From the sequence record OZ346151.1: 64,000 nucleotides of DNA; one strand, given 5' to 3'. The DNA comes from a phage. The number at the start of each line of letters is the position of its first letter. The stretch's first letter is position 1. The position numbers and the translations under genes were made by a program. This document shows, in pieces, positions 364 to 18,481 of this stretch. The notes under the pieces are model-generated. The model saw nothing but the letters and a program-made list of their open reading frames with translations. It was not told where the DNA came from and did no database searches.

Positions 364-1050
364 ATGGCAGAGATTAAGTCGGATGTTAACCACATCCACA
401 CTCTGCCAGATTTTGTTCAGGGAGGTCTTGACTACCTGCCTGGAGATTTTCTGGCTGAGAAGGTTAATTTAGTCACATTCTTAACCGTATACCTTAAAAG
501 GTTGGAGGATGTTGATAAGATGCTGGTAGGTTTGGCTGAAGGAAGATTGCTTAACAATGCCAGCGGAAGATACCTTGACGAAGTTGGTAATCAACTTGGT
601 ATTCTTAGGAATGGACTTTCAGATGCTGATTTTCGTGCCACACTAATTATTCAGCAGGCCGCAGCATCAATGGGCGGGACTCGCGAAGATGTCATCTCCA
701 CCTTGCGACAATTGTTCGGAAGAGACAATTTCGATACGTGGAAAGGAGACAACTTCAGGTTTGACATAAATATTAGAAAAACTTGCTTTGACATATTGCA
801 GTCTATCGATCAGATCTTAGATATGCTACCATTGCCTTGTCATTTGCGTCTTACAGAATCGCAAGGGCAAGCTTTTGGTTTTGAAGGGGACTCTACAGCT
901 CTTGGCTTCGGATCAGTATGGGAAGAAAACCAGTTTGGAGTTGGTGGACTGGCTACTTTGCTGTATGTTCCTGACGTAAGACCTGATTGGGACACCACAA
1001 CCATTTATTGTGAAAGTATTACAGTAAACGCAACTAGACAGGAGGGTTAA
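364..1050 (+). CDS. tail/baseplate structural protein (228 aa)
   Basis: ATG start; stop overlaps next start (TAATG) indicating translational coupling in the structural operon; function inferred from position only. Confidence 0.45.
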   Translation: MAEIKSDVNHIHTLPDFVQGGLDYLPGDFLAEKVNLVTFLTVYLKRLEDVDKMLVGLAEGRLLNNASGRYLDEVGNQLGILRNGLSDADFRATLIIQQAAASMGGTREDVISTLRQLFGRDNFDTWKGDNFRFDINIRKTCFDILQSIDQILDMLPLPCHLRLTESQGQAFGFEGDSTALGFGSVWEENQFGVGGLATLLYVPDVRPDWDTTTIYCESITVNATRQEG

Positions 1051-3122
1051 TGGCAACAGCTGTTTTTAAACCTTACCGTGATTACTCTACAATGGCTGCA
1101 CGGTTTCATTACCGAACAGTTCAGGATACTGCCGTTCCTGGTAGGGATTATGATCATGTTGAGGGCGATGTAACTATCCCAGTTGGGGCAACCAGTATTG
1201 AGATCCCCGTGGAAATTGTTGACAAATTACCCAACAGGTTGCCAAGAAGCTTCTTTATGGAGTTTTCATCAAAATCTCAAGGGGTGATGATTGGAACACA
1301 AAGGGCGAAATGTACAATAGTTTCAGATGAGAATCTTGACAGGATATCTTGGGATACTGTTGAGGAGAGAATGTTTCACCCAAGATATTGGGTTACAACC
1401 ACTCAGCAGACTGAAAGTACCTGTATTGTTGCAGATAACAACTGTTGTATTAACCGTTTAGTGTCAAGAACATATGGAGGTATGGCTGGGTGCATTTGGG
1501 AAACAGTTGACAAGTATGACCATTTCGGTATTGGGTTTGATGATCACTATGAGATGAGAAACACCAAGCTTTGGTTCAGAATGTCAATAACCAACGCCAG
1601 CAACTTCTCCACTCCTGAAAAGATGATTATGACTGTAGACCTTGTTGATGGCACAATCATCTATGTTCCTTTAGCTCAATATGCTGTCAGCATCTCAGAG
1701 GATAAGAATGTTGCAGAAATTCATATTGATTTTGAGGACTGCGTCGGGATGGACCAGAACAACAACATGATGGGTGTTGATCCTCGGCAGGTGAGAAGGA
1801 TTTTAATACCGCTTATGCCTAAAGACTGGGTAAGTAATAGCACAGACCCGAGAACGGAAAATGTAAAGTGTGAGTTGCGCCTAGATCTGCTTCAGCCAGA
1901 CACAGGCTGGAAAATGATGCAACTTAACAATATCCAGGTGAGAGAGCACGATGTTGGGATCTGCACCGCATATGACGATATGTGGAACGTGTCTCCTTTA
2001 AGGGTGTTGAACAATATCAAGCGTCTGGGCTATACCGGAACCATAAACCATTATGTTGGTATGAGTCATTATTATGACTACACATGGTCAGGAACCCAAT
2101 GGTCTATAAACAGAACAGGAGCGCTAAACGCTGCAGCTTATAAATGGCATGATGATTTTATGTACAATGCCAAACGACATAACTTCGACGTTATGCAATC
2201 TGTAAGTTTTGAGCTTTTCAGCGATGCCTGCCCGTTGGAATGGACCCAAAGAGACTGGAACGATAACTACGCTAAAACAGGGTATACACCTTGTAGCTAC
2301 CTCCTGTCTCCAACCATTGAAGAGGGTATGAATTTCCTTACTGCAGTATTTAAGAATTTTGCATCAGCCGCTATGAGAAACAACCTGCCAGTGATTATGC
2401 AGGTTGGTGAACCGTGGTGGTGGTACAATACCGATACTCGTAGACCTTGTATTTATGATTACCCTACAAAACAGGCGTTTTATGATGAGACAGGCGAGTA
2501 TGCATTAGATATTGGGACTATTGACGATCCTAAAACTGGCGGTGTTTACGATAAGTATGTAGCATTTTGTCGTGGTAAGCTTGGCGCTCGTATTGCGGCT
2601 ATTTCAAAGGCAATAAAGGCACACGCTGCATCAGCTCAGATGACAGCTCTGCTGTTTTTCCCAACCATTATGGAAACCGAGCTTACGCAAAAGCTTAACC
2701 TTGCTGACCAATATAAAAAGGAAGCAGGTGCTCTTGATTTCTTCTGCACCGAGTGCTACGATTGGGTGATGCAGGGAGGTATTGAAAAGGCAAAAGAGTC
2801 TGTAAACATACCTATCGTTAAGTTAGGTTGGCAACCGTCTGAAATACAATACCTTGCAGGGTTCGTTCCTAGTAAAGAGCTTGCTCCGGTATATGGCTAC
2901 GACCCAACCAGGAATTACCAAGAATTTTTATGGAGATGTATCTGCGGAAACATGGCAACCATAGAGTATAGATACCCTGAGGTAAAACAGTATGTGTGGG
3001 CATACCCGCAAGTAATGTCTGACAGCATCACTGTTACAGCCAGAGATTCTACCGTGCTTCATATGGGGCAGGTTGCTCTGAAAGGGTATGTAGAAGATGT
3101 TGTCCCTCCAGACTTCTCATAA
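1050..3122 (+). CDS. large tail structural protein (690 aa), possible baseplate or receptor-binding component
   Basis: Long uninterrupted ORF with GGAGGG RBS immediately upstream of tail-fibre genes; no catalytic motif recognised. Confidence 0.45.
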   Translation: MATAVFKPYRDYSTMAARFHYRTVQDTAVPGRDYDHVEGDVTIPVGATSIEIPVEIVDKLPNRLPRSFFMEFSSKSQGVMIGTQRAKCTIVSDENLDRISWDTVEERMFHPRYWVTTTQQTESTCIVADNNCCINRLVSRTYGGMAGCIWETVDKYDHFGIGFDDHYEMRNTKLWFRMSITNASNFSTPEKMIMTVDLVDGTIIYVPLAQYAVSISEDKNVAEIHIDFEDCVGMDQNNNMMGVDPRQVRRILIPLMPKDWVSNSTDPRTENVKCELRLDLLQPDTGWKMMQLNNIQVREHDVGICTAYDDMWNVSPLRVLNNIKRLGYTGTINHYVGMSHYYDYTWSGTQWSINRTGALNAAAYKWHDDFMYNAKRHNFDVMQSVSFELFSDACPLEWTQRDWNDNYAKTGYTPCSYLLSPTIEEGMNFLTAVFKNFASAAMRNNLPVIMQVGEPWWWYNTDTRRPCIYDYPTKQAFYDETGEYALDIGTIDDPKTGGVYDKYVAFCRGKLGARIAAISKAIKAHAASAQMTALLFFPTIMETELTQKLNLADQYKKEAGALDFFCTECYDWVMQGGIEKAKESVNIPIVKLGWQPSEIQYLAGFVPSKELAPVYGYDPTRNYQEFLWRCICGNMATIEYRYPEVKQYVWAYPQVMSDSITVTARDSTVLHMGQVALKGYVEDVVPPDFS

Positions 3123-6518: not shown

Positions 6519-8264
6519 ATGGCGCAAGACATGACAAGCTTCGAGCAGGCGGTAGATCAAGTAATTGTTGATTCTGAACGTTTGCACTTGATTGTCAACG
6601 GTAACGCTGTGGATGAAGTTGTCGTAGAGGATGGGACCACTATCCCTACGGTACGAAAAGCCATGCTTGACACCCTTTATTTTAAAACGCCACCAATCCC
6701 TTGGGCGTATGGTGCATCCACAACAGTTTTTAACCAGTTGTATGAGTTTAAAGGGGATACAGGCACTCAGTGGTGGTACGCCCCAGCAGCATCAAAATCT
6801 AACCCGGTTAGAATGCCAGCAGATCCTTCACAATCTCCAAACTGGAGATTATACACCGACTCTGCAGTAATGGCAAAATACTACGCAAAACTTAACAGCC
6901 CAAGGTTCGAAGGTGACCCGCGAGTACCTACACCTCCAATGGACGATAAGTCAGAGTCCATAGCAAACACAGAGTTTGTTGTTGACTATGTTGATAGCAT
7001 ATTTAAAGCCATGGAGGGGATGAAAGTTACTGTAGGATCTTTGGTGGTAAAAGGTCTTACAGAACTCGCTAACACTATAGTTGGTGGCACCCTTACCTTA
7101 CATGGACCTGTTAATGGGGCAGATTCTACTGCACGCTTTAGGAATCTAATCCTCACGGCAAATACTTCTACACTTACTTTTGCGTGGAGCGATCCTAAGC
7201 ATGCAGACTGGAGAAGTACAGAGCTGCAACCTCATGAAGTGTCCACCCACAGGGTTATAGCTGACACTATAACTTCTGGGAAACCAGTGGCTAATAATAA
7301 CGATGTGCATTTTGATGGTCTGGGTAATAACTTTTTTGACTACGTGTACATTCGTGGTAATGCCATGAAGGCAGCAACCGAACCGACATTGCAGGTAGAT
7401 GGGACCACCAGGGTTAAGAACCTTGAGGTGACAGGTACCGTTACAGGGATAACATACTCTGTCGATGGCACCATGATCTACCCTAGCTATATTGAAAGCA
7501 CTGGTGATGCATTGATAAATGGCGATTTGGAGGTTGGCGGGTCTGTAGTTATTCGAGGTACGGCCTCTATCCAAAACATAGCTCTGAATACCTTAAGAGT
7601 CAATGAGCGTGCAACTTTTGAAGGAGAAGGGCTTACAGCCAACAAAGGTGTAATTACCGAGCTGACAACAACCACTTTAACTGCAACAGCTGCAAACTCT
7701 GAAAACTGCAACGTTACCCGCAACTTGCAGGTAAATGGAGATGTCAGTTTAAACGCAGCAGGGCCTGGCACCACCTCTGTTCACAACCTTGAAATATCCG
7801 GCACGGTGACTGGGTGGTTGCCTGACTTCTCTAATGTCACCTTTGTCTGTAATGGCATTAACTCCAGTGGCAAGATAACCACCTCTCAAGAAATTGAGGC
7901 GGGTAAAACCATTACTGCCCCTACTTTCCACGCAGGAAAGGTAGATTTTGATTTAGAGGAGGTTGACGCGTCCAGTGGGACATGGACACCTAACGGGCAG
8001 GCCAGTATGTATGTTGTTCACGCGAAAGGGGATTTTACAATAGGACAGTGGCCTGGGACATCAGCGGAAGATAAACCTTATCCATTCACTGCGGTTATCT
8101 ATGTAATTCAGGATGCTGTAGGTCACAACGTGACTTTGCACGATAAGTATGCTATCCTGTCGGCAACACCTGTTATTAACAACAAGGCTAACAGTGTTAC
8201 CTTGCTGCAATTAACGTATTGTGGTGTTGGTGATATCGTAGACGTAGTAATTGCACAACGTTAA
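6519..8264 (+). CDS. tail fibre protein with conserved side-tail-fibre collar motif (581 aa)
   Basis: AAGGAG RBS; contains NSPRFEGDPRVPTPPMDDKSESIANTEFV, matching the conserved G-x-P-x-APTP...IATTAFV region of lambda Stf, P2 H and Mu S type fibres; Thr/Gly/Asn-rich C-terminal part. Confidence 0.65.
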   Translation: MAQDMTSFEQAVDQVIVDSERLHLIVNGNAVDEVVVEDGTTIPTVRKAMLDTLYFKTPPIPWAYGASTTVFNQLYEFKGDTGTQWWYAPAASKSNPVRMPADPSQSPNWRLYTDSAVMAKYYAKLNSPRFEGDPRVPTPPMDDKSESIANTEFVVDYVDSIFKAMEGMKVTVGSLVVKGLTELANTIVGGTLTLHGPVNGADSTARFRNLILTANTSTLTFAWSDPKHADWRSTELQPHEVSTHRVIADTITSGKPVANNNDVHFDGLGNNFFDYVYIRGNAMKAATEPTLQVDGTTRVKNLEVTGTVTGITYSVDGTMIYPSYIESTGDALINGDLEVGGSVVIRGTASIQNIALNTLRVNERATFEGEGLTANKGVITELTTTTLTATAANSENCNVTRNLQVNGDVSLNAAGPGTTSVHNLEISGTVTGWLPDFSNVTFVCNGINSSGKITTSQEIEAGKTITAPTFHAGKVDFDLEEVDASSGTWTPNGQASMYVVHAKGDFTIGQWPGTSAEDKPYPFTAVIYVIQDAVGHNVTLHDKYAILSATPVINNKANSVTLLQLTYCGVGDIVDVVIAQR

Positions 8265-8273
8265 TATATCTAA

Positions 8274-8298
8274 CCGCTCCTGACGGGGCGGTTTTCTT
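8274..8298 (+). terminator. rho-independent terminator or attenuator between fibre gene and giant gene
   Basis: CCGCTCC-tgac-GGGGCGG hairpin followed by TTTTCTT. Confidence 0.5.
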
Positions 8299-8312
8299 AT
8301 CTGGAGAACACA

Positions 8313-11300
8313 ATGCTTCCAATCCCTTTGCTAAAACTTGGTCGTCATTTCCTCGATAAGAGGGGTGGAATTAAGGAACTTGCTGTTCTGTCATACCCAA
8401 TAGACAACAGTGATGGTACAAGCAACACAGTATCCTATGTAAATAGCTTAGCTATACTTTTTGATGATGGTCAGCTTAATATTACTGGCTATAACAAGTT
8501 CGGAGAGTGCCGCACTGGGGATCGTAGCCCTATAAACTATCCGAGCGAAACAGCCTGGAATGTTGATCATGTGTGGAGAGCAGACCGCGCGTTTGTGATC
8601 CGGACTTTTGATAACCAGTTTTTCTACATCGGCTGCACTGCAGGTCTTATCGGATCCACTGCGGCAGGCGGTAATGATGTTTGCGTAAACGAGTGGACAC
8701 CACTCCCAGAGCAGATTGTTAAAGGATTGCACCTTGACACCCACCCAGAACGCCTTATTGAGGTGATGGGCGGTATTAACAACACTGTCTGGGTTATTGC
8801 AGAGGCAGAAGGTACTGGCATACTTAACCTGTATGGATCTGGTAACAACACCTACGGATCTTTGCATGTAGATAAAAATCAGCATGCAACCCCTGTAAAG
8901 ATTGGTGAGACATCGGAAAATCCTGAAACAGGCCCTTGGAAAAACCCAAGCATCAACTGTGAGGTGCATGACAACTCTGTTATTTTCGGTGGTCCTAGGG
9001 GTTTCTGGATTGCTGGATACGACTTTCTGAGAAATAACAGTAGAAACGACCTTGTTTGGCCTCCTGTGCAGATTACTCGTAACGATTTGAGGGGCATTCC
9101 TGCAGATGAGGAGTGGAAAGGGTTTATGTGTGGTCCTAACGGGGCAGTAATTGCTACACAGAGGATGCATAGACCCGATGACCAGCAGCTTGTTAACGTA
9201 TTTTATGGTCAAAACATTTGGGGAGATGATACATGGCGGGAACTGAATATCACCTACACCCATGAGGTAATGATGGCTCGTGGGTACGGCACAAGTGGCA
9301 TTTTCTTCAATAATGGCACTAAGCAGTATCGTGGGTTCTCTCGCAACTTATGTAATGATATTGGTGCACAATCTGCAAACAATAGTCCTAGGGCCGATTT
9401 TATCCACTATCAAGCTCTTGCTACAGCTAAATATGTTGAGCAACGCCTGCCAGTCAGCTGGACAGAGAGTGTTTATTTCCAAGGCATCCACAGAGAAGGT
9501 TTCTTAGGGACCTTTACTGTTGTTAATGGTAAACTTTGGTGGTCAGGTATCCCAAGGGGAAGTTTTACAGGCTCTAATAACCTGTTTGGCGGCAGACTTA
9601 ATAGTCAGGGGTTCACAGAGGTTCCTGAGAATTGGTATAAAAATGTCCCAGTAGACAGTTGGGGCGTTGATGATATTTTCGACGTTAATGGTGTTAGCAG
9701 TGTTAGCAATATCTACATTGGTGACACGGTCAAGATGAAATTGAAGCCTCAGCCAGAGGGAGCTACGTTCATCATTGACAAGATTGAACTGGTGAATGCT
9801 GCAGGTACGGTTGTTACAGATGCAAATTACCAATTCTCCACCAACTGGAACCACGGCGGGGCCAACGAAGTTGTTGTTACCCAGTATAACAGAAATGTTA
9901 ACAGACGTGGCCTGTACTCTGTAAAAATAACCTATCATGACAAGCATGGCACAGGCAGAACTCACACGACAAGGACTTTGAACTGGAACACCATAGTTCC
10001 TGCGTATCCGTCCAACGGCAAGTGGCATACCGTTGGTAGAAACAAGCAGTTCCATGTTAACGATACTGTATACTTTGGGCTGAATGGGACCCAGCCTGCA
10101 GTAGAAGGGGATACATCGTATATGGTCAGACTCCACAGAATGGATGCTGGATCAGTCACTTATGATGTGACCCAAGAGATCTACGATCAAAGACGCGCCA
10201 CGTATGACAATATTGTGAAAACACAAGCCTTGTGGGAGTTCAATCCTAATGGCAAGGGTGGTAAAATGTTGCAGGTTAATGAGCAGAACGGAACGTCGTT
10301 GACTGTTCACGAACACCCAGACCCTTGGCCTGATCCTGGAAAACCTCACCCGGGAGCTCGTACACTGAAAATTGTCAGCCATGATGCAGGATATTTCGGA
10401 ATACGCTGGGAAGCTACAGTAAGATATGTCGACGGGACAACAAACAACATAGGGATTACACTTGGCGGCACTAGTGAAGATAGCTCGCTGAAAATTGCCT
10501 ACACGCCCAGAGGTATCTCTATTGATAATATGGATGTTGTTCGCAATGGTTACGGCGATGTGAATGTCAAAGTTACTCTTGGCGAACATCTTGGTGGGGA
10601 AAGGATCATCATGTATGCCTTTGATCATGATCCACGCACCAATGGAACTTATGCAAATCAGGCATGGAGTTACCTGATAAATGCACCTGAGCCGAATACT
10701 AAAGAGTTCTACTATGGCATGAAGCGAGATGTGTGCAAGAAAACAGGAACACATGACTGGATTGCTATCTGCGTTAAAGATGAGCGCACAGCTTGGGATG
10801 AGCCTGTTAACAGATGGTTCATAGGTATTCCTACCAGAAGTGATAAGTATGTCGCAGAATATATTGTATGCATGGGCGGTACCAACCTAAACATGTGTTG
10901 GAACGAAGATGTAAACAAATACTCTGATTATGACTATATGAGGGATTACTCTTGTAATTTGTGGTTTAACCAAACTACAGGTTACCCTCCAAGACAGGCG
11001 AGAGTAAACCCTGCAATCTTCACAGACACGCAGGTTTTCTTGACAAAACAGGCCAACGAGGTTCAGACCTTCAAGAATAAATACGATCCTAACAAGTGGT
11101 TCTACAACTGTTACGGCGCATTTTTCTGGGGACCTGGTGAGTTACCTGGTGGTGGATCTTGCTTGAATGAGGCAACTTACGCAAGTGACTACATCATGGG
11201 GCAGGTCAAGAAGTATAAGATAATCCCCGGTCCTGAGACTTTGGGCAATGCCGTTGACCCTTATATCATCATGACTGCACTGAGATCAAACATGGATGGG

Positions 11301-13949
11301 ACATCCATGTCCATGCAAATTCCGGTAACAAACGGATACAAACGTGTTGTGATGATCATTAAGTGCGACCTGATAGGTAAACAAGTTCTTGCAGAAAACG
11401 GGACATCCACACATCCTTTTGAGATCGCTCTGCACTATCAGTTTGCTGACTCACCTTTTGCAGGGGATAAGAGAATATCTGATACAGACGCACAGCGTTG
11501 TAAGAAAGTATTGTTGGGTGCAGGTTGGTGGTGGTATGAGTTTGATTTAACAGACAAATTCACCGACACGTCTAAAGTTGTAACAGGACTTCGTCTAGAC
11601 CTTGGCGAGAACATGCACAAAGCTGTTTGTGATGGCACCTATGGTGACCCTACAATATACCTAAAATATGTTTCTTTTGAGCATCCGGAAGATGTTGTCT
11701 ACGGTCCAAAACTGAGATTGTTTGGCAGCTGGATTGCAAAAGATAGGGTAGGCATGGGTAAGAAGGTAAGAGGGTTCTTGGTTGATGCAGGAACAGAAGA
11801 CATGCTGGTTAATGCAGTATGGCCTGAATTACCTGGGACTCAGTGGGACAACTCAGCCAAATCTATAAACTGGTTTAACATTCATAGGGCCATGTGGACC
11901 ACTAACTGCTACTTGTGGAGAGAGCTTAACGATCAGGCCTTTGGATTCAGCGAGGGTAGAAGGATGGCGATCATTTGCTGGACAACACTGCAAAGATGTT
12001 ATGACCATGACTATGAGATTGGGGGCAGGGCATGGAAAAATATCAGGGATAGAATCATAACCAATTTTGCAGACGACAACGGTGGTGGAGCACATAACTT
12101 TGGCACAAGCCGACTCATCCATTTGAACGGATCCTCAGCCTACAAGAAAGAAGGTTACTCTGGGTCTATGATCGAGCGGGGTCTGGTGAAAGATGCTCGC
12201 GTATTGATGGGCCAGCAACTTGCTGCCGCAGTAGGTCCCAGCGCAGTGCAGTCGGTTAAACCAGCGTGGTTCGATATTCCATTGTGGTCACCCGGAACAC
12301 CGGGAACTGCTGCAATCAACCCTACCACTGGGGATCTGGAAATCTCCTGGGAAGACCTGAAGCAGGTCGGTGGTTGGGACAAAACAGGGTATCAGGTTCA
12401 ATGGTGGAGGGCTGACGGATCTTTAGCCGCTGATGAGTTTGTTAAGGACAATTTCTACACTATGTCCTCTGCAAAAGCACAGCAATTATTTGGTCAGGCA
12501 ACTCCGTCAACGATCACCATGTCTATGTGCTGTAAAGACAACAGGACTGGAGCTTTGGGGCCAAGGGTTGCTAAAGTTTTCTCAGGTATTAAATGGAATC
12601 TACCTGTCCAAAGTATTTCATGGAAGCAAATAGGTGATAACAAGCTGCTGGTTACCCCTGCCTGTCAGTTCAACGCAACTCTTAACGTTGATCCTGCTGT
12701 TGCGGCAAACTCAGCTAAAGCTTCTGACTTCTCTGTGTCTAACACTGCTATGGCAGATGTGAGGAAGATTGACACGCTGAACGCCAGAATTACCTGTAAA
12801 AACACTTATGGCACATTCCAAATCATCAACAACTTCACAGATGCTGATTCTAAGGTAGTGAGGACAGCAAGCCAGACTCTGAGTTTAGGAACTCTGGCCT
12901 ATGCGGCCCTGATCACCGAACAGTCGGCAACACTCCAAGGAGGTGGTGTAGGCAAGTCCATTACAACACCTGTGTGGAAGCCAAATGAGTGGGTTGTGTT
13001 TGATTTGACTGTGGACTTCTCCAGCGATAATAACTGGACATGGGTAAGGAATTGTTTGTCACAGTTGATGGGCGGTCCAAGCTCCGTTAGTGATAGTCAC
13101 GACTCTACTGACCCGAGTGTGTTCCAGGTAGGTAAAACTCACCCAGAGACTGGAGAAACGTTGCCTGACAGGAAGTATGCTTTGGTTTGCATCTCTTACG
13201 GGAAGGCAGATGTCGCCTTCTCAGGGACACACACTTATAACGGAACCTACAACTTCTCAAGGAAGTATAGTCTCAAAGCAGGGAACATTATAGACGAGGT
13301 TGGTGCGCTGTATAATCCGGGCAACGGCATAGGGATTGTTGGTGGTAAACTGCAGATGCAGGAACCTTCTATTACCCCTTCCAACGTATCCGGGATTAGA
13401 AAGACTTGGGAAAGTAGTAATACCAACATTGCAACAGTGGATGCCACCACAGGACTGGTAACATTTAAAGCTACTGGGAATGTCACCATAAAGTTTGTAG
13501 TTACTGATGATGTAGGGCGCAAAACGTCTTCAACATCTTTTACTGTCAAACAGATGGCACCACAGTGGAGAATGTGGATAGGTACAGCAACAAACGGGGC
13601 ATACCCTAATCCGTCAGGTACTTCTGGTATGAAGACTTTCTCTACAAGCAAACCGATGGAGTACGGCAGCGGTCCTAAGGTAGGGCAGATGGTGTACTTT
13701 GGTGCGTATATTCCTGAAATTATAGGGCTTCCTAGAAGTCAGCTTCAGTTGCTGTTTGGGGCTGGTGTTGACGATCTTGCCACTTTCGGGTATAGCGACA
13801 ACATCGAGGCTGCAAGGAGTTCAGGATGGGTAGGGTTCAGAATGGAGTCTGGAAAGGAAGGCAGGATTCTAGGGACAGCCTCTATAGGTGTTATGTTCCC
13901 TGGTGACCAGCAGTATCGTCTAGAAGCCTACGCAACCTTTTCTCGTTAA
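8313..13949 (+). CDS. giant virion-associated protein (1878 aa) with Big_2-type Ig-like domain; probable fibre, spike or host-specificity protein
   Basis: 5.6 kb uninterrupted ORF with GGAGAA RBS; C-terminal segment ATVDATTGLVTFKATGNVTIKFVVTDDVGRK matches the Big_2 pattern; follows fibre genes. Confidence 0.6.
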   Translation: MLPIPLLKLGRHFLDKRGGIKELAVLSYPIDNSDGTSNTVSYVNSLAILFDDGQLNITGYNKFGECRTGDRSPINYPSETAWNVDHVWRADRAFVIRTFDNQFFYIGCTAGLIGSTAAGGNDVCVNEWTPLPEQIVKGLHLDTHPERLIEVMGGINNTVWVIAEAEGTGILNLYGSGNNTYGSLHVDKNQHATPVKIGETSENPETGPWKNPSINCEVHDNSVIFGGPRGFWIAGYDFLRNNSRNDLVWPPVQITRNDLRGIPADEEWKGFMCGPNGAVIATQRMHRPDDQQLVNVFYGQNIWGDDTWRELNITYTHEVMMARGYGTSGIFFNNGTKQYRGFSRNLCNDIGAQSANNSPRADFIHYQALATAKYVEQRLPVSWTESVYFQGIHREGFLGTFTVVNGKLWWSGIPRGSFTGSNNLFGGRLNSQGFTEVPENWYKNVPVDSWGVDDIFDVNGVSSVSNIYIGDTVKMKLKPQPEGATFIIDKIELVNAAGTVVTDANYQFSTNWNHGGANEVVVTQYNRNVNRRGLYSVKITYHDKHGTGRTHTTRTLNWNTIVPAYPSNGKWHTVGRNKQFHVNDTVYFGLNGTQPAVEGDTSYMVRLHRMDAGSVTYDVTQEIYDQRRATYDNIVKTQALWEFNPNGKGGKMLQVNEQNGTSLTVHEHPDPWPDPGKPHPGARTLKIVSHDAGYFGIRWEATVRYVDGTTNNIGITLGGTSEDSSLKIAYTPRGISIDNMDVVRNGYGDVNVKVTLGEHLGGERIIMYAFDHDPRTNGTYANQAWSYLINAPEPNTKEFYYGMKRDVCKKTGTHDWIAICVKDERTAWDEPVNRWFIGIPTRSDKYVAEYIVCMGGTNLNMCWNEDVNKYSDYDYMRDYSCNLWFNQTTGYPPRQARVNPAIFTDTQVFLTKQANEVQTFKNKYDPNKWFYNCYGAFFWGPGELPGGGSCLNEATYASDYIMGQVKKYKIIPGPETLGNAVDPYIIMTALRSNMDGTSMSMQIPVTNGYKRVVMIIKCDLIGKQVLAENGTSTHPFEIALHYQFADSPFAGDKRISDTDAQRCKKVLLGAGWWWYEFDLTDKFTDTSKVVTGLRLDLGENMHKAVCDGTYGDPTIYLKYVSFEHPEDVVYGPKLRLFGSWIAKDRVGMGKKVRGFLVDAGTEDMLVNAVWPELPGTQWDNSAKSINWFNIHRAMWTTNCYLWRELNDQAFGFSEGRRMAIICWTTLQRCYDHDYEIGGRAWKNIRDRIITNFADDNGGGAHNFGTSRLIHLNGSSAYKKEGYSGSMIERGLVKDARVLMGQQLAAAVGPSAVQSVKPAWFDIPLWSPGTPGTAAINPTTGDLEISWEDLKQVGGWDKTGYQVQWWRADGSLAADEFVKDNFYTMSSAKAQQLFGQATPSTITMSMCCKDNRTGALGPRVAKVFSGIKWNLPVQSISWKQIGDNKLLVTPACQFNATLNVDPAVAANSAKASDFSVSNTAMADVRKIDTLNARITCKNTYGTFQIINNFTDADSKVVRTASQTLSLGTLAYAALITEQSATLQGGGVGKSITTPVWKPNEWVVFDLTVDFSSDNNWTWVRNCLSQLMGGPSSVSDSHDSTDPSVFQVGKTHPETGETLPDRKYALVCISYGKADVAFSGTHTYNGTYNFSRKYSLKAGNIIDEVGALYNPGNGIGIVGGKLQMQEPSITPSNVSGIRKTWESSNTNIATVDATTGLVTFKATGNVTIKFVVTDDVGRKTSSTSFTVKQMAPQWRMWIGTATNGAYPNPSGTSGMKTFSTSKPMEYGSGPKVGQMVYFGAYIPEIIGLPRSQLQLLFGAGVDDLATFGYSDNIEAARSSGWVGFRMESGKEGRILGTASIGVMFPGDQQYRLEAYATFSR

Positions 13950-13962
13950 CAAGGGGATAAAT

Positions 13963-13993
13963 AAAAAGGGGCCAAACGGCCCCTTTCTTTTTA
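13963..13993. terminator. bidirectional rho-independent terminator between convergent transcription units
   Basis: AAAAA-GGGGCC-aaac-GGCCCC-TTTCTTTTT hairpin flanked by A-tract and T-tract. Confidence 0.7.
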
Positions 13994-13996
13994 TAG

Positions 13997-14197
13997 TTAG
14001 TAATACTCCCAACATGCCCCATCTTCAGACGGCTTGACGCGCTTACCTTTATGGTCAACATAGGTATAGCCACAACCTTCACAAATAACAGGTGCTGCAT
14101 AGCCTTCCTTCCACTGATCCTCAGTGATCAGACCTTCCAAATCTTTGCAGTCAAAGCCAAACAACTCTTCAGAGCAATCTTTACAAAAATCAGCCAT
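13997..14197 (-). CDS. small Cys-rich zinc-ribbon-like protein (66 aa)
   Basis: ATG with GAGGA RBS; two CxxC pairs (CKDC ... CEGC). Confidence 0.5.
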   Translation of the reverse strand: MADFCKDCSEELFGFDCKDLEGLITEDQWKEGYAAPVICEGCGYTYVDHKGKRVKPSEDGACWEYY

Positions 14198-14200
14198 TTC

Positions 14201-14608
14201 TCAGTCCTCGCATTTAACAAATTTTTCTATAGATCCACCAAGCACAGCTTGTTGTTTGATGGCACTTTCTTCATCATAGTGGATAGACTTATGTTCCGTA
14301 CCTCCAAACTTACCTGTGTGGAAGGTGTGCACCCAAATCTCTTTAGGAAGGGATTTATTCTCTTCCTCCACCAACTCCCACATACCCCACAAGTGATCTG
14401 TGATATCTCTGATGAAATATCCCTCGCCGAGGTTTGTATTCACACTGTAAGCTGATTCGTGATCTCCGCAAATATAACGGAAGGCAGTGTACTCTTTACC
14501 TGGTGTGAAGTGAGTATCCATTAGTATGGCTGTTAAAGAATAAGGGTCTCGAAAGCCCAAGAACTTTAGTTTAACAATTTCGACATTTACATCTGCAAGA
14601 TTATCCAT
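14201..14608 (-). CDS. hypothetical protein (about 136 aa from ATG)
   Basis: ATG preceded by GAGGAG; function unknown. Confidence 0.45.
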   Translation of the reverse strand: MDNLADVNVEIVKLKFLGFRDPYSLTAILMDTHFTPGKEYTAFRYICGDHESAYSVNTNLGEGYFIRDITDHLWGMWELVEEENKSLPKEIWVHTFHTGKFGGTEHKSIHYDEESAIKQQAVLGGSIEKFVKCED

Positions 14609-14769
14609 GACGATCTCCTCTGTTTGGTTGGTGAGAATTATATATAGATCTGGTGGTGGCGTCAAGCTTAATTTTAAGAGATCTGAGAGGGTATTTTATT
14701 CAGGAAGGCAATCGCACAGGGTGGAGAAATTTATGAAGGCACAGGCCTCGTTTGAGGCCTTAAATTCTA

Positions 14770-17691: not shown

Positions 17692-17955
17692 TTAGAAACC
17701 CTCTAAAAAGCTCTTGTAGAAAATAATTTCAGTATCTACACCAGTCACGATCTTATCGTTCCTGATTTCATCTGTAAGGTAGGTGTCAAAACGCAGAACC
17801 TGTGTGGTGTTGTCACACATCCACTCAGCTGTGACCATTGCGAAAATCTTAGCATCTTCATTATCTGGTGTGAATGTTACCACCTCACCGCACTTAAACT
17901 TTTCGATAGGCTGAGTGTTAGCTTTCGGTTCTGCGATAGTGATTTTTGTGGTCAT
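17692..17955 (-). CDS. small protein, tandem paralogue family (87 aa)
   Basis: Same length class as neighbours; FKCGEVV motif. Confidence 0.45.
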   Translation of the reverse strand: MTTKITIAEPKANTQPIEKFKCGEVVTFTPDNEDAKIFAMVTAEWMCDNTTQVLRFDTYLTDEIRNDKIVTGVDTEIIFYKSFLEGF

Positions 17956-18218
17956 TATTCTCCTCCTTCTTTTGAATAGCTTGTCTCTCCAAGGATGGTA
18001 ATTTTGGTGTCAAGCTCTGTAACTTTCATGTTTGGCGGCAGATCGTACAACTCATTATTTTCTAAATCGAACCCCCACACACAATGTTCTCCTGTTTTGA
18101 CAATCATAACTATGTTTTGAATGCCGTCTCCGTCGCAACTTACCACAGTCCCACACGGAAAGCTGTCTGCACGCTTTTTGTTCTTCACCTTAGAATTGAA
18201 TACAATGCTGGTAGCCAT
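17955..18218 (-). CDS. small protein, tandem paralogue family (87 aa)
   Basis: MAT N-terminus, K-rich segment, PCGTVV, FDL and I-x-I-L-G-E shared with 18218..18481. Confidence 0.5.
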   Translation of the reverse strand: MATSIVFNSKVKNKKRADSFPCGTVVSCDGDGIQNIVMIVKTGEHCVWGFDLENNELYDLPPNMKVTELDTKITILGETSYSKEGGE

Positions 18219-18481
18219 TATTGTTCCTCCACCATAACTTCGCCAATAATTTCTATGCAGGCATCCATTTCTGTAACAACCAAACTGTGAGGTAGTTCTA
18301 CAAACACCTTTCTGAACAGGTCAAATACCCCAACATATATGTTTGCAGGATGTGATTTTACAACAAGTGCTGTATTCACATCCCCAAGTTCATCAACAAA
18401 CATCACCACAGTGCCTGGAGCTACTGAGGACAGATACTTCTTAGTTTTACGGTTTGATGCAAATTTTAACTCTGTTGCCAT
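18218..18481 (-). CDS. small protein, tandem paralogue family (87 aa)
   Basis: MAT N-terminus, PGTVV, FDL, IEIIGE; clear paralogue of 17955..18218. Confidence 0.5.
   Translation of the reverse strand: MATELKFASNRKTKKYLSSVAPGTVVMFVDELGDVNTALVVKSHPANIYVGVFDLFRKVFVELPHSLVVTEMDACIEIIGEVMVEEQ

Follow-up and report, generated by a model that had tools for sequence, protein, structure and literature searches.

A giant multidomain protein at the end of the Vequintavirus tail-fibre cluster as a possible accessory adhesin

The tail-fibre cluster of Vequintavirus phages ends in a giant gene, and the role of its product is the question raised by the locus examined here. The stretch of DNA analysed (hereafter the window; 64,000 nucleotides, sequence record OZ346151.1) comes from a phage that is a Vequintavirus. 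At positions 8313..13949 on the + strand, the window carries a single open reading frame (ORF) encoding 1878 amino acids (aa) plus stop, which is the ortholog of rV5 gp27 and of BASEL bas48_0041, is the largest gene in the cluster and takes up about 4% of the genome. With a probability of roughly 50%, we read its product as a non-enzymatic accessory adhesin of the tail-fibre apparatus, with an N-terminal propeller anchor, a flexible chain of sandwich domains and a variable binding tip. The position in the cluster, the propeller, the Big_2 domain, the sandwich chain, the gradient of conservation and the recombining alleles fit this reading. A first-pass annotation made from the sequence alone had described a 5.6-kb ORF after the fibre genes and interpreted it as an adhesin-like protein; the ORF and its place as the last gene of the fibre cluster are confirmed, whereas the observation as a whole was partly confirmed and its interpretation partly supported.

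Domain architecture

The first 450 residues (8313..9662, +) are the most conserved part of the protein across genera, with allelic segments at aa 61-180 and 241-300. We conclude from sequence comparison that aa ~40-450 form an RCC1-like beta-propeller, because this module is homologous to orthologs that pass the RCC1 threshold and because a cross-genus profile matches known propellers. The positional orthologs are phAPEC8 gp086 (Phapecoctavirus, 891 aa) and 4MG gp038 and GAP31_232 (Seunavirus, 567 aa), each of which is the last gene of its tail-fibre cluster, is annotated "tail protein" and belongs to phrog_11922. All three pass the PF00415 cutoff of 21.7 bits (with 24.0, 36.9 and 32.7 bits), match the RCC1-like domain model over aa ~40-330 (E=6e-11 to 7e-9), with Big_2 domains after it, and also match PHROG families named "regulator of chromosome condensation" (E=1e-42 and 4e-34). 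Using hhalign, aa 1-450 of the Vequintavirus proteins were aligned with aa 1-416 of these orthologs at 99.85% probability (E=1.3e-30), and the motif positions were invariant across genera; BLAST detects only aa 1-200 of the giant protein in them. When searched against the PDB, the cross-genus profile (window sequence included) matched UVR8 (E=1.2e-8), HERC1 (2.9e-7) and HERC2 (1e-6), followed by RCC2, RPGR and RCC1; 23 of the 24 matches have the RCC1-like propeller fold, and the GSGNNTYGSL blade aligns successively with six UVR8 blades. The positional orthologs therefore resemble the giant protein in cluster position, in the homologous N-terminal module and in the Big_2 domains after it, but they lack ~1000-1300 residues, comprising the extra sandwiches, the helical region and the Vequintavirus C-terminal domain.

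Repeated G-x-N-x-x-G-(E/S)-x motifs had been the original basis for suggesting a propeller. Two strict copies (GYNKFGE at aa 59 and GNNTYGS at aa 177) and one loose copy (GQNIWG at aa 299) were found, which exceeds chance and fits a period of ~60 aa but is hardly a repeat array. Internal periodicity was not significant by autocorrelation (z=2.4 against a threshold of 3.85), and pairwise segment alignment and BLAST self-hits gave no significant internal repeats. The RCC1-type Pfam matches of the giant protein itself were below threshold (PF25390, 21.1 bits with a cutoff of 150, E=2.2e-4; RCC1_2, 13.2 bits with a cutoff of 22); the propeller is thus upheld through the orthologs, hhalign and the cross-genus profile, and of the two Pfam domains expected by the first-pass annotation only Big_2 scores above its cutoff in this protein. 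Alignment of the N-terminal profile by hhalign with human RCC1 as a single sequence (PDB 5tbk) was not significant, such a single-sequence template being too weak, and a word-index search with the N-terminal 470 aa returned almost no matches and missed known family members too, which makes it a weak negative. Seven-bladed RCC1-like propellers (UVR8, HERC1/HERC2 RLD and RCC1; PF00415/PF25390) have in common with the module the blade signature of a strand plus G-x-N-x-x-G-x-L-G. They differ in that only two or three blades can be recognised by sequence in the giant protein, which stays below the Pfam thresholds on its own, and in that the module has no tie to nucleotide exchange or chromatin and would instead serve in the virion or in adhesion.

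RCC1-annotated proteins in related genera have been detected in virions by mass spectrometry (MS), and their role was guessed from the family name. In phage W70 (PMC11370258), the RCC1-fold virion proteins W70_237-239 (Vequintavirinae) were read as 'chromosome condensation' proteins aiding DNA packaging, a reading that seems to be taken from the family name. The propeller-plus-Ig architecture of the giant protein suggests surface or adhesion roles instead.

Beyond the propeller, the protein contains a chain of beta-sandwich domains. AlphaFold2 was run on aa 1-1140 and aa 840-1878 with 16-17 homologs, giving a mean predicted local distance difference test (pLDDT) score of 46 and 53, respectively, and only the beta-sandwich domains of these models were usable. 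Prediction in segments, as the first-pass annotation had proposed, accordingly delivered several confident sandwiches but neither the propeller nor the helical region with confidence. The chain begins with a probable Ig/PKD-like sandwich at aa ~455-560 (9675..9992, +; PKD_4 E=0.076; pLDDT 50-72), and at the equivalent place the homolog P0003 matches Bact_surface_Ig-like (E=8e-4). Confident domains follow at aa ~735-845 (10515..10847, +; immunoglobulin-like, hereafter Ig-like; pLDDT 62-83; Foldseek matches to MG/Ig/adhesin arrays), at aa 969-1124 (11217..11684, +; like a jelly roll or carbohydrate-binding module (CBM), with allelic variation at aa 961-1020 and 1081-1140), at aa ~1329-1429 (12297..12599, +; FN3-like) and at aa 1509-1569. 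An Ig-like sandwich at aa ~1589-1670 (13077..13322, +; pLDDT 71-87) precedes Big_2, and the match to phrog_215 starts within it, at aa 1592. In the AlphaFold2 models, aa 1589-1759 are a confident beta-sandwich and aa 1774-1878 are moderately confident.

The Big_2 domain reported near the C-terminus (PF02368; aa 1682-1738, 13356..13526, +) was verified by a Pfam match above the cutoff (E=3.5e-8; 33.7 bits compared with a gathering score of 22.8, and 37 bits with the C-terminal segment alone as query), and the segment was found to have an Ig-like beta-sandwich fold. Its PDB sequence matches are Ig domains, those of intimin and the Sap S-layer protein. An exhaustive HMMER search of the C-terminal 1039 aa against 1.84 billion representative proteins gave 663 matches, and among the 150 listed all those from outside the family fell on Big_2. 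The last domain (aa 1741-1878, 13533..13946, +; pLDDT 52-71) is variable, occurs as two alleles (the type of the window and that of JeffSchatz) with 69% identity and is matched by the C-terminal part of phrog_215 (E=6.5e-19); it is a candidate ligand-binding tip.

All fold matches of the protein were to adhesins, S-layer proteins, phage Ig decorations and CBMs, which fits the earlier description as adhesin-like. No recognisable catalytic fold was found in the giant protein, and no coiled coil, triple beta-helix, beta-helix or C-terminal intramolecular chaperone was predicted or matched in Pfam, the AlphaFold2 models or the fold searches; full-family and mid-region profiles gave nothing meaningful against PDB sequences. 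Intimin/invasin adhesins resemble the giant protein in the Big_2 Ig-like domain and the beads-on-a-string design, but the giant protein has no LysM or beta-barrel anchor. Membership of that family was rejected (NF033627, 22 bits against a cutoff of 1400, over ~40 residues of Big_2 only), and the 'intimin domain' of the BASEL annotation is Big_2 only. Likewise, the C-terminal domain of lambda gpV, T5 pb6, T4 Hoc and the 'tentaclins' offer a likeness through Ig-like chains, to which weak carbohydrate binding or a flexible reach is ascribed. In the phage Ig accessories, a single domain is attached to a tube or capsid protein, whereas the giant protein stands alone as a 208-kDa product that starts with a propeller module. 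Tentaclins are small (313-649 aa) and combine a C-type lectin at the N-terminus with an Ig anchor at the C-terminus that bears a consensus motif (PMC10743442). Tentaclin membership was rejected, the N-terminus being RCC1-like and not a lectin.

Interspersed with the sandwiches is a conserved region of ~330 residues, a sixth of the protein, which is split by the CBM-like sandwich into aa ~840-965 (10830..11207, +) and aa ~1125-1330 (11685..12302, +). Helices are predicted in both parts at low confidence (pLDDT <50), and the fold is not readable. Together they rank second in conservation within the family and contain numerous invariant Glu, Asp, His, Arg, Trp and Cys residues, including E1162-D1163, N1189-x-H1191-R1192, E1235, E1280 and E1288 in the second part. 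No relatives of this region were found in Pfam (E up to 10), NCBIfam, PHROGs outside its own family or the PDB by profile, and among the matches listed from the 1.84 billion representative proteins, none from outside the family fell on this region; a word search with the mid-region profile found almost no matches and again missed known family members, a weak negative. The lack of long helical repeats had been held against a tape-measure function. This judgement holds on the beta-rich domain content. The ~330 conserved, probably helical residues were also missed in the first-pass annotation. A tape measure or other internal tail protein is suggested by size only, and the Ig-like domains and propeller rule the role out. 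A tape measure is expected to be a long helical protein with its gene between those of the tail chaperones and the baseplate hub, and in rV5 it is gp49, whose gene is at the opposite end of the cluster from the giant gene.

The conserved region bears on an alternative in which it is an unrecognised glycan-degrading or glycan-modifying domain and the protein an enzymatic fibre or spike, as among the enzyme fibres of the 'Swiss army knife' cluster. Its rank in conservation, its invariant acidic, His and Arg residues, the CBM-like and Big_2-CBM56-like fold matches typical of glycosidase accessory modules and the enzyme domains in neighbouring fibre genes all point that way. The absence of any catalytic family match in the same Pfam, NCBIfam and PDB profile searches, the isolation of the region within its own family and the absence of a predicted beta-helix or TIM barrel (at a pLDDT of <50 for the region) point the other way, and we regard this alternative as unlikely. 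A polysaccharide-lyase interpretation of the N-x-H-R motif at aa 1189-1192 was dropped, as no lyase family matched at E up to 10.

Conservation and allelic variation

The gene is already annotated in >100 genomes; its Big_2 domain and an assignment to tail fibres are likewise on public record, and the finding of the gene is not new. The full-length gene is present in 108 phage records, all Vequintavirus, with DNA identities of 99.9% to Escherichia phage naswa, 99.4% to BASEL phage CarlMeissner and ~94-95% to rV5-type phages. The product rV5 gp27 (YP_002003529; 1878 aa, 208,334 Da) appeared in a 2013 listing as a conserved hypothetical protein carrying Big_2 and is now named "Ig-like domain-containing protein" in RefSeq, and in the BASEL genomes the ortholog is called "lateral tail fiber protein with intimin domain" (e.g. 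CarlMeissner bas48_0041). The giant protein is aligned end to end by phrog_15684. In rV5 and the other Vequintavirus phages the orthologs are the same gene, with 1878 aa, 93-99.9% DNA identity, the same position and Big_2 noted; some deposited orthologs differ in being split or truncated, whereas the copy in the window is intact. Approximately 15-20 GenBank MG0656xx records ('Campylobacter phage' A135, C12, D1 and others) also carry the giant gene of these E. coli phages at 93-98% identity, and their Campylobacter jejuni host label looks doubtful.

The split orthologs are those of naswa, ime, Alma, phita32 and nomine (two coding sequences each) and of V18 (four coding sequences), and the DrSchubert ortholog (L009) has a stop at codon 1818. 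Either these sequences are in error, or the gene can be dispensed with on laboratory hosts; the phages that carry them are viable, and many were isolated on E. coli K-12.

Purifying selection acts along the entire length of the ORF (1878 codons), which is a real gene. In a codon alignment of seven Vequintavirus orthologs, the ratio of nonsynonymous to synonymous substitution rates (dN/dS) was 0.02-0.16 in every 60-codon window except aa 1741-1800 (0.40). Conservation declines towards the C-terminus among homologs, with identities of 60-85% in aa 1-500, 35-70% in aa 500-1300 and 16-38% past aa 1300, and the last ~230 residues are absent in two homologs. Fifteen homologs were found on metagenomic phage contigs (15-142 kb) at 40-96% identity, and one with 40% identity lies in a fully syntenic locus; three genera and this metagenomic relative all have the gene at the end of the fibre cluster. 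Among cultured phages, the C-terminal 289 aa are restricted to Vequintavirus, with bimodal identities.

Within Vequintavirus, variation is concentrated in four segments, namely aa 61-300 (propeller), 901-1020, 1081-1200 and 1741-1878, and takes the form of discrete alleles that are ~100% identical within groups and 69-85% identical between groups. The grouping changes by segment: HdK5 has the propeller allele of rV5 and JeffSchatz but the C-terminal allele of the window. Because allele groupings differ between segments, the pattern is read from the alignments as a recombination mosaic. Discrete recombining alleles are typical of genes that meet variable host structures. The BASEL authors remarked that the last large fibre gene, gp27, has moderate allelic variation, which agrees with the alleles found here.

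Cluster setting and particle evidence

The giant ORF is the last gene of a baseplate and tail-fibre run on the same strand. The run includes a baseplate protein and an N4-gp65-like TIM-barrel fibre, continues with two paralogous short fibres and a lambda-gpK-type assembly chaperone, and closes before the giant ORF with a small membrane protein and a 581-aa fibre protein. The TIM-barrel fibre (690 aa; 1050-3122, +) has N4 gp65-type NCTSP_N and TIM-barrel_NCTSP domains (E=4e-80) and a Calx-beta match; it is the deacetylase fibre tied to recognition of enterobacterial common antigen (ECA) and the N4 glycan receptor (NGR) in the Vequintavirus and N4 literature. The known receptors have thus far been assigned elsewhere in the cluster, with the deacetylase fibre (1050..3122) recognising ECA/NGR and the short fibres the lipopolysaccharide (LPS) core. 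The 581-aa fibre (6519-8264, +) shares its N-terminal ~110 aa with colanidase tailspikes of phi92-like phages and carries a C-terminal head (aa 477-581, ~105 aa). This head is a mobile module in 385 phage records, including phi92-like, Klebsiella, Certrevirus and jumbo phages, whose proteins with this head are annotated as long tail fibre proximal subunit. No module of the giant protein has a paralog elsewhere in the window.

Particle data come from relatives. In the rV5 virion MS table, protein 27 is represented by 3 peptides and 9 spectra with 3.1% coverage; the three peptides are non-tryptic or semi-tryptic, with XCorr of 2.65-3.2, Sp ranks of 1, 9 and 14 and mass errors of 1-2 Da. The rV5 head decoration protein gp61 is abundant by comparison (1077 spectra). 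These counts bear on whether the giant protein might be a Hoc-like decoration of capsid, neck or sheath that promotes adherence to mucus or environmental surfaces and not to the host cell. Decoration proteins of phages typically carry Big_2 and Ig-like domains, PHROGs places phrog_215 (match at aa 1592-1877) in its 'head and packaging' class, and weak or fold-level matches to decoration and Hoc-like proteins were obtained. However, rV5 already has gp61 as a head decoration protein, the gene closes the tail-fibre cluster, well away from the head genes, and its N-terminal module is common to positional orthologs annotated as tail proteins. We judge decoration elsewhere on the particle unlikely, and less probable than an enzyme in the helical region. 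In cryo-electron microscopy (cryo-EM) of Vequintavirus, the head of fibre class TC8 contacts density that was fitted by no fibre model, and one fibre was likewise left unassigned in a cryo-EM study of phi92.

The giant ORF has a ribosome-binding site, GGAG at 8303..8306 (+), which is 6 nucleotides 5' of the ATG as read from the sequence. Strong terminator-like hairpins stand on both sides of the gene. The first, between the 581-aa fibre gene and the giant ORF (8272..8293, +), has a 9-bp stem followed by a T-rich tract (fold energy -14.9 kcal/mol, z=-3.4), and a putative terminator is likewise annotated directly before the phAPEC8 ortholog. Lying 5' of the ribosome-binding site, this hairpin would make the giant gene less strongly expressed than the 581-aa fibre. 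The second (13965..13986, +; T-rich tract after; -16.8 kcal/mol, z=-4.1) closes the late tail-fibre transcription unit. Rho-independent terminators are annotated at the same place in rV5, and the genes past it are on the other strand.

Flanking hairpins would also suit a protein outside the virion, expressed late and either released at lysis or kept inside the cell (e.g. binding debris or receptors), or an accessory gene decaying in laboratory passage. This reading gains from the rV5 MS evidence, which is at the level of a likely false positive, and from the split or truncated genes listed above. It is countered by the position of the gene directly after the fibre genes on the same strand, by purifying selection over all 1878 codons, by the detection of RCC1-like proteins of related phages in virions and by alleles that recombine as in receptor-binding genes, and we hold it to be improbable.

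Two further features of the window lie past the cluster. Directly beyond the second hairpin, a 134-aa ORF (14051-14455, +) overlaps a 154-aa ORF on the opposite strand (14201-14665, -); the former is probably not a gene, because curated relatives annotate only - strand genes there and no PHROG match was found. At 17692-18481 (-), three abutting ORFs of exactly 87 aa each (17692-17955, 17955-18218 and 18218-18481) look like a tandem triplication, and their CarlMeissner counterparts are annotated as hypothetical proteins.

The accessory adhesin reading and its implications

In the favoured reading, the giant protein would be a monomeric, flexible 'tentacle' adhesin of the baseplate and fibre network. 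Its conserved N-terminal propeller module would fix it to the virion, perhaps at the head of the 581-aa fibre, and its variable modules, above all the C-terminal domain, would contact surface glycans of the host or of its surroundings weakly and reversibly. These contacts may raise the adsorption rate ahead of engagement of the known receptors, in which the N4-gp65-like deacetylase fibre would engage ECA/NGR and the short fibres the LPS core. The giant protein would then modulate host range and adsorption without being essential on E. coli K-12. Also counted in favour of this reading were the conserved N-terminus together with a C-terminus that is divergent or absent in homologs, the assignment of receptors to other cluster proteins, the unassigned cryo-EM density on the head of a Vequintavirus fibre, and the split or truncated genes in viable isolates, many grown on K-12. 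Docking on the head of the 581-aa fibre is attractive because in Phapecoctavirus the two proteins have different bodies and have kept only this head (51% identity) and the propeller.

Several points weigh against this reading. The evidence for presence in the virion is weak, consisting of three low-scoring rV5 peptides, and the text of the rV5 paper leaves gp27 out of the detected proteins. Cryo-EM of two Vequintaviruses that carry the gene (Bas49 and Bas54) gave density for 3/9 annotated fibres, and the giant protein was not placed. The propeller fold of aa 1-450 was deduced from homology; the AlphaFold2 model of aa 1-453, built on a 17-sequence alignment, is unusable (pLDDT <50), and with that region so modelled no propeller appeared among the fold-search matches. 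The monomeric state is likewise deduced, from domain types. The split genes could be sequencing errors, and the ~330 conserved residues with no matched fold could be catalytic. The head of the 581-aa fibre occurs in 385 records compared with 214 for the propeller module, and their coupling is not exclusive; since the head is the more widespread of the two, the docking stays hypothetical. Ranked by likelihood, the alternatives to the adhesin are an enzyme in the helical region, a decoration protein elsewhere on the particle and a non-virion protein, and a tape measure is excluded.

A bolder version would join docking and enzyme in one monomeric 'branch', in which the propeller is plugged onto the head of the upstream trimeric fibre, which would explain the TC8 density, and the ~330 conserved residues form an enzymatic or glycan-binding domain of a new kind, directed at a polymer of the host surface. 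We consider it unlikely. If true, it would represent a new design of phage host recognition, with propeller-mediated attachment of fibre on fibre and a new catalytic fold. Phages of the rV5 type are often considered for therapy and biocontrol, and the multi-fibre apparatus is credited with their broad host range. The domain map presented here singles out the propeller module, the two-allele C-terminal domain and the conserved helical region for experiments or for comparison with existing cryo-EM maps.

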